Origin: an uncultured Rhodospirillaceae bacterium
GTDB taxonomy: Bacteria > Pseudomonadota > Alphaproteobacteria > Micavibrionales > UBA2020
Length of the DNA stretch: 64,000 bases
NCBI GenBank assembly: GCA_964458415.1
Contig: CAYWIT010000011.1
Location: 11,739-75,738, forward strand
Direction: 5' to 3'
Position 1 is the stretch's first letter; every line of letters begins with the position of its first letter. This document shows positions 39,288 through 40,127 of this stretch, in pieces. The position numbers were made by a program, and so were the translations under genes. The notes beneath the pieces were generated by a model. The model made no database searches and had not been told where the DNA came from. It saw nothing but the letters and a program-made list of their open reading frames with translations.

Positions 39288-40127
39288 ATGAACAAAGACT
39301 TTCTAAAAATCACCACACTCTATACTTTTGGCGTGATTTTCTTTTTCTACCTGATCTGGTCACTTCTGGCGCTGGCCTTGCCTGAGGCAAATCTCAATCT
39401 GGTACGAGCGCTCTCCACTTCCTTCGGAATCAATCTGCCCGAAGACATGATCGTCGAAACCGGTATGGGAATCAAAGCCGTCGCCGTTGTCATGATCATC
39501 GCGATACTGTCAATCGGCCTGATCGTCCTCAACGTTTTTTTCAGCGCCATCGTCACCGCCAGATTCATCCATCCCCGCGTTGCGCTCATCACTTCGACGC
39601 GCGGCGTTCTCAGCACAAAATGGAATGCCGAAAAGCCCTACGTTCTTGTCCGTATGTCAAATTTTCACAAGGCTGATCTTGTTGATGTGCAGCTCTGCGT
39701 CGTCCTGACTGTTGAAGAAACGCGCAAGACGGAAAACGGCAATGAACAATTCCTGAGCTATCTTCCAATCAATGAATTTACGCCGCCACGCATATTATTA
39801 ATGGCCCCGCGCATGCCGTGGAGCATCGCCGTCCCCGGAGATATTCTCCTTGGAAACTCTTTGGTGAAAGACTATCACTTCAAACCCGGCGAACCTATTA
39901 CCAAGTCCTTCTCGGCAGGGAAAAAACTGCTTAGCGCCAAGCGCACTCTGCAAATTCTCATTCAAGGGCTGGATACCCGATCCCATGCCAATTTTGTGAT
40001 CTATCGTAAAATAGAAATTGACGAGCAAGATGGTGAAAACTACACGCTCCACCTGCATCGGGGATCGTTCAAATCACTCCCGCTGCATATTCAGTCCGCT
40101 CTGGAGCTGGAACAATACGTCGATTGA
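39288..40127 (+). CDS. Kir/KirBac-like two-TM channel homolog with degenerate selectivity filter
   Basis: ORF 39180-40127. ATG at 39288 follows GAGGGGG. Two TM helices flank the segment ...MIVETGMGIK. The TM2-ARFIHPRVALITS junction and the following beta-rich cytoplasmic domain parallel the ARFxRP... junction and Ig-like C-domain of KirBac channels. Confidence 0.5.
   Translation: MNKDFLKITTLYTFGVIFFFYLIWSLLALALPEANLNLVRALSTSFGINLPEDMIVETGMGIKAVAVVMIIAILSIGLIVLNVFFSAIVTARFIHPRVALITSTRGVLSTKWNAEKPYVLVRMSNFHKADLVDVQLCVVLTVEETRKTENGNEQFLSYLPINEFTPPRILLMAPRMPWSIAVPGDILLGNSLVKDYHFKPGEPITKSFSAGKKLLSAKRTLQILIQGLDTRSHANFVIYRKIEIDEQDGENYTLHLHRGSFKSLPLHIQSALELEQYVD

Follow-up and report, generated by a model that had tools for sequence, protein, structure and literature searches.

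Background

Channels of the inward-rectifier (Kir) family are not all built around the canonical K+ filter. NirBac1.1 and NirBac1.2 share about 35% identity with KirBac1.1 and keep all the Kir domains, with the P-loop alone exchanged (Zubcevic et al. 2015, PMC4607889). Both form tetramers that pass Na+, K+, Rb+, Li+ and Cs+ without selectivity, although the P-loop of one is unrelated to that of the other; their flux is insensitive to spermine (PMC4607889). TbIRK of Trypanosoma brucei carries GGYVG as a filter substitute and is selective for K+ over Na+ by a factor of more than 7 (Steinmann et al. 2017, PMC5429665). Here we describe a gene for a 279-amino-acid protein, named KirL, that lies in a stretch of 64,000 nucleotides (the window) of contig CAYWIT010000011.1 from an uncultured Rhodospirillaceae bacterium. 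Profile comparisons and a predicted structure place KirL in the inward-rectifier (Kir/KirBac) superfamily as a very divergent member.

Relationship of KirL to Kir and KirBac channels

The structure of KirL was modelled with AlphaFold2 from a 26-sequence alignment. The mean predicted local distance difference test score (pLDDT) was 83, and that of the cytoplasmic C-terminal domain (C-domain) exceeded 90. Helices were predicted at residues 3-30 and 60-94, a short helix at residues 37-45 and a beta-sandwich from residue 100 onwards, in agreement with a preliminary description of this DNA that had proposed two transmembrane (TM) helices and a beta-rich C-domain. When the model was compared with 350,542 PDB chains using Foldseek, the 50 best matches belonged exclusively to the Kir family (E 1e-9 to 3e-7), each with a probability of 1.00, over 180-340 aligned columns and at 13-18% identity. 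KirBac3.1, Kir2.x (Kir2.2), Kir3.2, Kir4.1/5.1, Kir6.x and Kir7.1 were all among them, and the top match was 9ma5, a Kir4.1/5.1 heteromer. The cytoplasmic fold is thus predicted to be of Kir type and not an unrelated one.

Profile comparisons pointed to the same family. A hidden Markov model (HMM) of the KirL family matched KirBac3.1 alone in the PDB, with an E-value of 0.15, and placed KirL residues 87-151 on residues 128-190 of KirBac3.1, that is, on the ARFxRP junction and the first C-domain strands. For the comparison by hhalign, the reference profile was made from 28 proteins carrying both PF01007 and PF17655, as bona fide KirBac relatives do. Against this profile the alignment of close KirL relatives scored 42.1 (P 4.4e-5) and a broader KirL alignment scored 43.9 (P 2.9e-5), whereas 60 column shuffles reached at most 24.3 and the reversed alignment 18.4. 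When the alignment was split, the junction and C-domain (residues 85-279) scored 39.7 (P 1.5e-5; shuffled maximum 20.2). Residues 1-90, compared with TM1-pore-TM2 of KirBac, scored 13.0, which was within the range of the shuffles (median 10.6, maximum 16.9). Two motifs are shared, the junction (ARFIHPRVxLxTS in KirL, ARFxRPTxxVLFS in KirBac) and the start of the G-loop (LQILIQGxDxxS in KirL, xVxLTGxDExF in KirBac; I-x-G-x-D), and G227 is invariant in KirL like the corresponding glycine in KirBac. At the level of sequence profiles, the junction and C-domain of KirL are homologous to those of Kir. The helices and loop resemble the Kir pore module in predicted topology and fold match, and sequence homology is not demonstrable for them.

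The preliminary description had called the protein Kir/KirBac-like and had set a search with the IRK and IRK_C profiles as a check beforehand. This search was negative: Pfam IRK (PF01007), IRK_C (PF17655) and Ion_trans_2 gave no match at E<=1 for KirL and 26 family members. The assignment to Kir nevertheless stands because the fold is related to the Kir cytoplasmic domain, and the part that survived is the one supported by the exclusively Kir fold matches and by the profile-level homology of the junction and C-domain. The Kir C-domain and TM2 junction would then have persisted in a lineage that lies beyond the reach of domain models and in which the K+ filter and the gating elements of the N-terminus are gone.

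The kirL gene and its family

The open reading frame at 39180-40127 on the forward strand encloses KirL, and an internal ATG at 39288 gives the protein of 279 residues. In the alignment with other genomes, the N-termini of homologues lined up on this methionine (M-x-K-D-F...), and occasional N-terminal extensions were not conserved. Because the homologues align from this residue and a Shine-Dalgarno-like sequence precedes it, the ATG at 39288 is the likely start of KirL. The frame is as it had first been described, and the segments IVETGMGIK (residues 55-63) and SAIVTARFIHPRVALITS (residues 86-103) are both present. No Rfam element was found around KirL, and counts of promoter and terminator patterns there were not above those in shuffled sequence.

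KirL is a real, conserved gene. Homologues fell into 100 clusters at 90% identity, with E-values of 1e-179 to 1e-49, far beyond chance; almost all came from Alphaproteobacteria, Micavibrio or 'Bdellovibrionales' metagenome-assembled genomes and all were annotated as hypothetical. When 1.84 billion representatives were searched exhaustively with HMMER, only 18 clusters were returned, and a metagenome scan with an alignment of the distant subfamilies returned only the known locus of homologue P0103 and a near-identical copy. No family of NCBIfam, PADLOC or PHROG matched KirL, and no relatives were found in viral contigs or in plasmids. As far as these searches reach, the family is small and stands isolated among known sequences. 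Membership of the Kir superfamily, with a non-canonical pore, can now be assigned to about 100 proteins of Micavibrio-like predatory Alphaproteobacteria that had been labelled 'hypothetical'.

One homologue with 64% identity to KirL (P0041) bears a precomputed Pfam tag, PF27960.1, which is absent from the other 99 homologues. The most distant subfamily, with 24-29% identity, consists of P0108 and P0110-P0113 (loci L004 and L044-L046). These proteins have a shorter loop in the C-domain and an additional Cys-rich tail at the C-terminus (CxxC...C), which is possibly a metal-binding ribbon.

Periplasmic loop and transmembrane helices

TM1 of KirL has one conserved helical face formed by T9, Y12, V16, F20, L27 and A30 (periodicity p=0.007). 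Only about seven cytoplasmic residues, including K3 and K7, precede it, and therefore the slide helix and N-terminal strand of Kir channels are missing in KirL. KirBac3.1 has about 45 residues ahead of TM1.

The K+ signature T-x-G-Y/F-G does not occur in the KirL sequence, as had been noticed at the outset; in the KirBac relatives G98-Y99-G100 is invariant. The accompanying proposal, in which VET was a remnant of the pore helix and GMG a shortened form of TVGYG, did not hold. The residues in question belong to positions 53-62, the most variable segment of KirL, with a mean top-residue frequency of 0.33 against 0.70 overall and an entropy of 2.7 bits among 103 homologues. Other family members read VVDSSM-GL, IVEAKM-GF, MVGTQM-GL or VAGDAA-DI in this region. 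The motif LSTAFGINLPD, located earlier in the loop after the predicted short helix, is conserved within the clade, with a top-residue frequency of 0.77, equal to that of the junction and above the C-domain average of 0.70. Distant subfamilies keep the length of the loop and its pattern of helix, hydrophobic alternation and proline, but not its sequence. Since the comparison restricted to the TM region was null, it is by topology only that the loop can be taken as a candidate P-loop. For the same reason, the register given by the full-length hhalign alignment, with STS-FGIN on ATIGYGK, was not used.

Within TM2, serine was found at position 75 in 99 of the 103 homologues, asparagine at position 82 in 98 (histidine or aspartate in the others) and threonine at position 90 in all 103. 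N82 lies 14 residues before P96, the invariant proline of the junction. The pore-lining 'rectification controller' site is occupied by I138 in KirBac1.1 (counted to P152), D172 in Kir2.1, N171 in Kir1.1 and N160 in Kir6.2 (PMC2654083). N82 would share the register of this site, and we offer the TM2 residues as suggestive only. In the hhalign alignment T90 occupies the position of the bundle-crossing Phe/Tyr of KirBac.

Cytoplasmic domain

The motif ILIQGxD (residues 223-229) of the KirL C-domain aligned with 'LTGxDE' of KirBac. Across the whole family, conservation peaks at HLHRGSFKSLPL (residues 255-266, window positions 40050-40085), a stretch with two nearly invariant histidines; the tail reached a value of 0.87. 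The stretch may sense a metal or pH, or it may form a subunit interface in place of the absent N-terminal strand. KirL has no other output domain, neither enzymatic nor DNA-binding, so the only conceivable output of the protein is its membrane module.

Possible function of KirL

We put at about even the chance that KirL is a tetrameric, ligand-gated and probably poorly selective cation channel; tetramerisation, conduction, selectivity and gating are what we infer. The predicted architecture consists of a cytoplasmic N-terminus of about seven residues, TM1, a periplasmic loop of 32 residues with a short helix, TM2 running straight into ARFxxP, and an Ig-like C-domain of Kir type. KirL would assemble as a tetramer like other members of the Kir family and form a cation-conducting pore, in which the loop LSTAFGINLPD would take the place of the TxGYG filter and TM2 would supply a polar lining with S75, N82, S/G86 and T90. 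Because it lacks a K+ filter, the pore would probably be poorly selective among monovalent cations, as in NirBac. The cytoplasmic domain would control opening in response to a cytosolic ligand. A channel is favoured because the membrane module is the sole conceivable output of the protein and because NirBac and TbIRK conduct without TxGYG. In addition, the loop motif is conserved while the adjacent segment drifts freely, and mid-TM2 carries a near-invariant asparagine in the register of Kir1.1 N171 and Kir6.2 N160; both were counted in favour of a channel.

Several observations weigh against this interpretation. Besides the missing Pfam match and the null profile comparison of residues 1-90, the loop was modelled with a pLDDT of only about 45-55 (below 50 at residues 53-62), its motif is not conserved in the distant subfamilies, where G47 is replaced by R, N, A or D, and the absent slide helix and N-terminal strand are elements of Kir gating and assembly. 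A polar stripe along TM2 was rejected as a statistical claim (periodicity test, p=0.23). The main rival reading, possible but rather doubtful, is that KirL is a non-conducting derivative whose ancestral pore has decayed, with the helices serving as a membrane anchor and the Kir-type C-domain as a tethered ligand-binding or scaffolding module. Such an anchor would fit a TM and loop region without detectable homology to K+ channel pores, the lack of the filter motif and of the slide helix, a loop that differs among subfamilies and is modelled with low confidence, and the fact that conservation is strongest in the cytoplasmic tail. However, an anchor would not need a loop of conserved length (32 residues) with a conserved helix and motif, nor a near-invariant asparagine and threonine within TM2; KirL encodes no partner or output domain, and the NirBac P-loops, which are equally unrelated to one another, still conduct. 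That KirL is a K+-selective channel in spite of its unusual loop seems quite improbable to us. TbIRK is a precedent, being K+-selective without the signature sequence, and the KirL loop keeps a Thr/Ser-x-Phe-Gly element; but this element has a single glycine, which varies in distant subfamilies, homology was not detectable for any part of the pore module, and NirBac channels, whose loops are unrelated, are non-selective.

KirL and the AAA-VWA cassette

As first described, KirL is divergent from an AAA-VWA operon: a spacer of 159 bp separates it from the gene of a 965-residue VWA protein (VWA965), which is followed by the gene of an 883-residue AAA+ protein (AAA883). VWA965 has a C-terminal VWA_2 domain (Pfam, E 2e-6, residues 748-863) preceded by an acidic low-complexity linker. 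AAA883 has invariant Walker A (G-x4-GKS) and Walker B (LFLDEF) motifs, and in its AlphaFold2 model (pLDDT 84) the first 390 or so residues matched NorQ of the NorQ-NorD complex, CbbQ2, the Rea1 ring and HslU, with E-values of 4e-4 to 3e-3. On their domain matches and predicted fold, the two proteins are a MoxR-class AAA+/VWA pair, accompanied by a conserved third gene for a protein of 109 residues. The AAA883 family comprised only 72 clusters, all annotated as hypothetical.

The preliminary description had suggested that this divergently transcribed system has KirL as its membrane effector or as its client. We now regard this as very improbable. It draws on the divergent arrangement with its 159-bp spacer and on the MoxR-VWA pairs NorQD and CbbQO, which act on specific client proteins and which AAA883 resembles in fold. 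Linkage was surveyed by tblastn over 29 genome loci plus metagenome loci. In the Micavibrio-like clade, the order ABC transporter, small open reading frame, AAA, VWA, KirL, phaB-like short-chain dehydrogenase/reductase (SDR) and phasin was found in about 19 of the 22 loci with enough flank, which speaks for a link. However, each partner persists without the other. Three loci (L010, L012 and L017) lack the whole cassette and keep KirL, at 63-70% identity, either next to the ABC gene or in a different setting. Conversely, L049 has phasin, SDR, VWA, AAA, the small frame and ABC in the same order with a gap of 170 bp between SDR and VWA and no KirL, and the most distant AAA-VWA pair (31% identity, in L047 and L048) is not accompanied by KirL. 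No AAA or VWA neighbour was found for distant KirL homologues (24-44% identity) in any examined lineage with readable flanks. Between KirL and an MsbA-like ABC gene, the cassette comes and goes in the manner of an indel. Moreover, phaB and phasin are at least as syntenic with KirL as the cassette is, and they are convergent on KirL and not co-transcribed with it. Because synteny is equally strong on this other side, the adjacency of KirL and the cassette reflects the synteny of one clade and not functional coupling; KirL is independent of the cassette, and the linkage expected in other genomes was found only as synteny within that clade. The case cautions against over-reading gene adjacency.

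The distant AAA-VWA pair is located in L047 (1-22601) and in L048. Its neighbours are an Arm-type integrase, an N6/N4 methylase, a diversity-generating-retroelement-like reverse transcriptase with bAvd, and two resolvase/recombinase genes. This mobile-element-like setting suggests that the cassette can travel horizontally. A protein of 291 residues encoded downstream of the AAA gene in L047 was considered as a KirL homologue and rejected (hhalign probability 0.07%).

Thiol and polyamine genes beside distant relatives

In three lineages with unrelated flanks (P0103 in L006/L007, P0105 in L008 and P0104 in L040), a gene for a CHAP protein of 167-185 residues lies directly 5' of the KirL gene on the same strand. 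The stop codon of the CHAP gene and the start codon of the KirL gene overlap in L008 and L040 and nearly abut in the remaining lineage. Reading by eye showed no obvious signal peptide in these CHAP proteins. In E. coli GspSA (3a2z), the glutathionylspermidine amidase domain matched them with an E-value of 9e-5, in the catalytic Cys motif (QCVEFxRR) as well as in the His motif (GHVAII); the match to trypanothione synthetase-amidase was weaker (NCBIfam NF007801). By these sequence features, the KirL-linked CHAP protein is a cytoplasmic enzyme resembling glutathionylspermidine amidase. In a fourth lineage (P0102; L036 and L041-43), a two-gene unit divergent to KirL ends in a protein with a Spermine_synth domain. 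In a fifth (P0101; L052 1469-2830), KirL is convergent with an ATP-grasp enzyme of the glutathione synthetase type (GSH-S_ATP, E 6.5e-19). The protein encoded upstream of KirL in L052 was also considered and is not a CHAP protein.

The lineages of P0106, P0108, P0109 and P0110 showed no thiol or polyamine neighbour, although the 1.4-kb contig of P0109 offers almost no flank. KirL's own clade is without such neighbours too, and no CHAP gene was detectable in the window. Because 'thiol/polyamine' is a category drawn up only after the neighbours had been seen, no P-value is given for the pattern. It is striking because polyamines are classical blockers of Kir pores. The repeated pairing of distant relatives with an enzyme resembling glutathionylspermidine amidase suggests to which class a ligand of the KirL family may belong. 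The family may accordingly represent a bacterial Kir branch tied to polyamine and glutathione-conjugate metabolism, in which spermidine, glutathionylspermidine or glutathione would be sensed by the C-domain or would block or pass the pore; we consider this unlikely on present grounds. If it were true, the interplay of polyamines and Kir channels by which inward rectification is defined in animals would be rooted in bacterial metabolism.

Feature coordinates and downstream genes

The features of KirL, of the window and of the related loci are listed in Table 1. Downstream of KirL (40139-45157) the window has the content of an ordinary alphaproteobacterial chromosome, beginning with the phaB-like SDR and the phasin (both by Pfam). 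Further on lie genes for a 484-residue protein with a GGEEF motif and a 126-residue receiver-like protein, which by eye alone resemble PleD and DivK, followed by genes for an EipB-like protein and a 232-residue GGDEF-like protein.

Table 1. Positions of KirL, its predicted parts and associated genes (window coordinates unless a locus is named; residues are those of KirL)
Feature	Position	Strand	Basis
KirL coding sequence (279 amino acids, stop codon included)	39288..40127	+	Open reading frame list, 100 homologue clusters, aligned homologue N-termini
Shine-Dalgarno-like GAGGGGG, 9 nt 5' of the KirL ATG	39275..39281	+	Read from sequence
AT-rich intergenic region of 159 bp, common to divergent KirL and VWA genes	39129..39287	.	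Sequence reading
TM1, residues 8-30	39309..39377	+	AlphaFold2 helix 3-30
Conserved periplasmic loop with short helix (residues 37-45) and LSTAFGINLPD (residues 42-52), candidate re-entrant P-loop	39378..39443	+	Conservation, AlphaFold2
Variable insertion, residues 53-62, with 'VETGMG'	39444..39473	+	Least conserved segment; 11-residue insertion in hhalign
TM2, residues 63-94, with conserved polar S75, N82, S/G86, T90	39474..39569	+	Residue counts
TM2/cytoplasmic junction ARFIHPRV, residues 91-98, homologous to Kir 'ARFxRP'	39558..39581	+	HMM and hhalign alignments
Beta-sandwich like the Kir C-terminal domain, residues 99-279	39582..40124	+	pLDDT >90, Foldseek, hhalign of the C-domain alone
Three-gene cassette: VWA965, AAA883, conserved 109-amino-acid frame	33167-39128	-	Open reading frame list
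CHAP and KirL two-gene operon	L006 9478-10864; L008 9495-10855; L040 463-1889	Same strand	Flank reading
Spermine_synth neighbour unit	L041 5447-7599; L036 7095-9259	Divergent to KirL	

Comparison with known systems

The genes beside KirL recall NorQ-NorD and CbbQ-CbbO in their Walker A and B motifs, in the NorQ/CbbQ/Rea1-like fold and in the C-terminal VWA domain that follows an acidic linker. VWA965 and AAA883 differ in being three to four times the size of NorQ or CbbQ and in carrying unassigned domains, and they are not evolutionarily coupled to KirL.

For KirL itself, Kir and KirBac are the only structural and the only profile neighbours. With KirBac1.1 and KirBac3.1 (TC 1.A.2) it shares two TM helices with both termini predicted in the cytoplasm, the TM2-ARFxxP junction, the Ig-like beta-sandwich of the C-domain and G-x-D at the G-loop. 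It differs from them in its identity of only 13-18% in structural alignments, below all Pfam thresholds, in the absence of TxGYG, of the N-terminal domain and of the slide helix, and in a pore module that is not detectably homologous. Threonine stands for Phe/Tyr at the bundle-crossing register, and a variable insertion of 11 residues precedes TM2. TbIRK is likewise related to IRK and without the signature sequence, but it is eukaryotic and retains GGYVG, whereas KirL has no di-glycine element.

NirBac also combines a frame of Kir type with a non-canonical P-loop, which is unrelated to any known filter and differs between relatives. In KirL the divergence is an order of magnitude greater, the N-terminal elements are lacking and Pfam gives no IRK match. 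Non-canonical pores within a Kir frame have been a published concept since 2015, and KirL exceeds NirBac in divergence and in losses. KirL would extend the 'modular P-loop' idea of NirBac to a far more remote branch, and with 279 residues it offers a minimal scaffold of Kir type for asking what the C-domain does alone.

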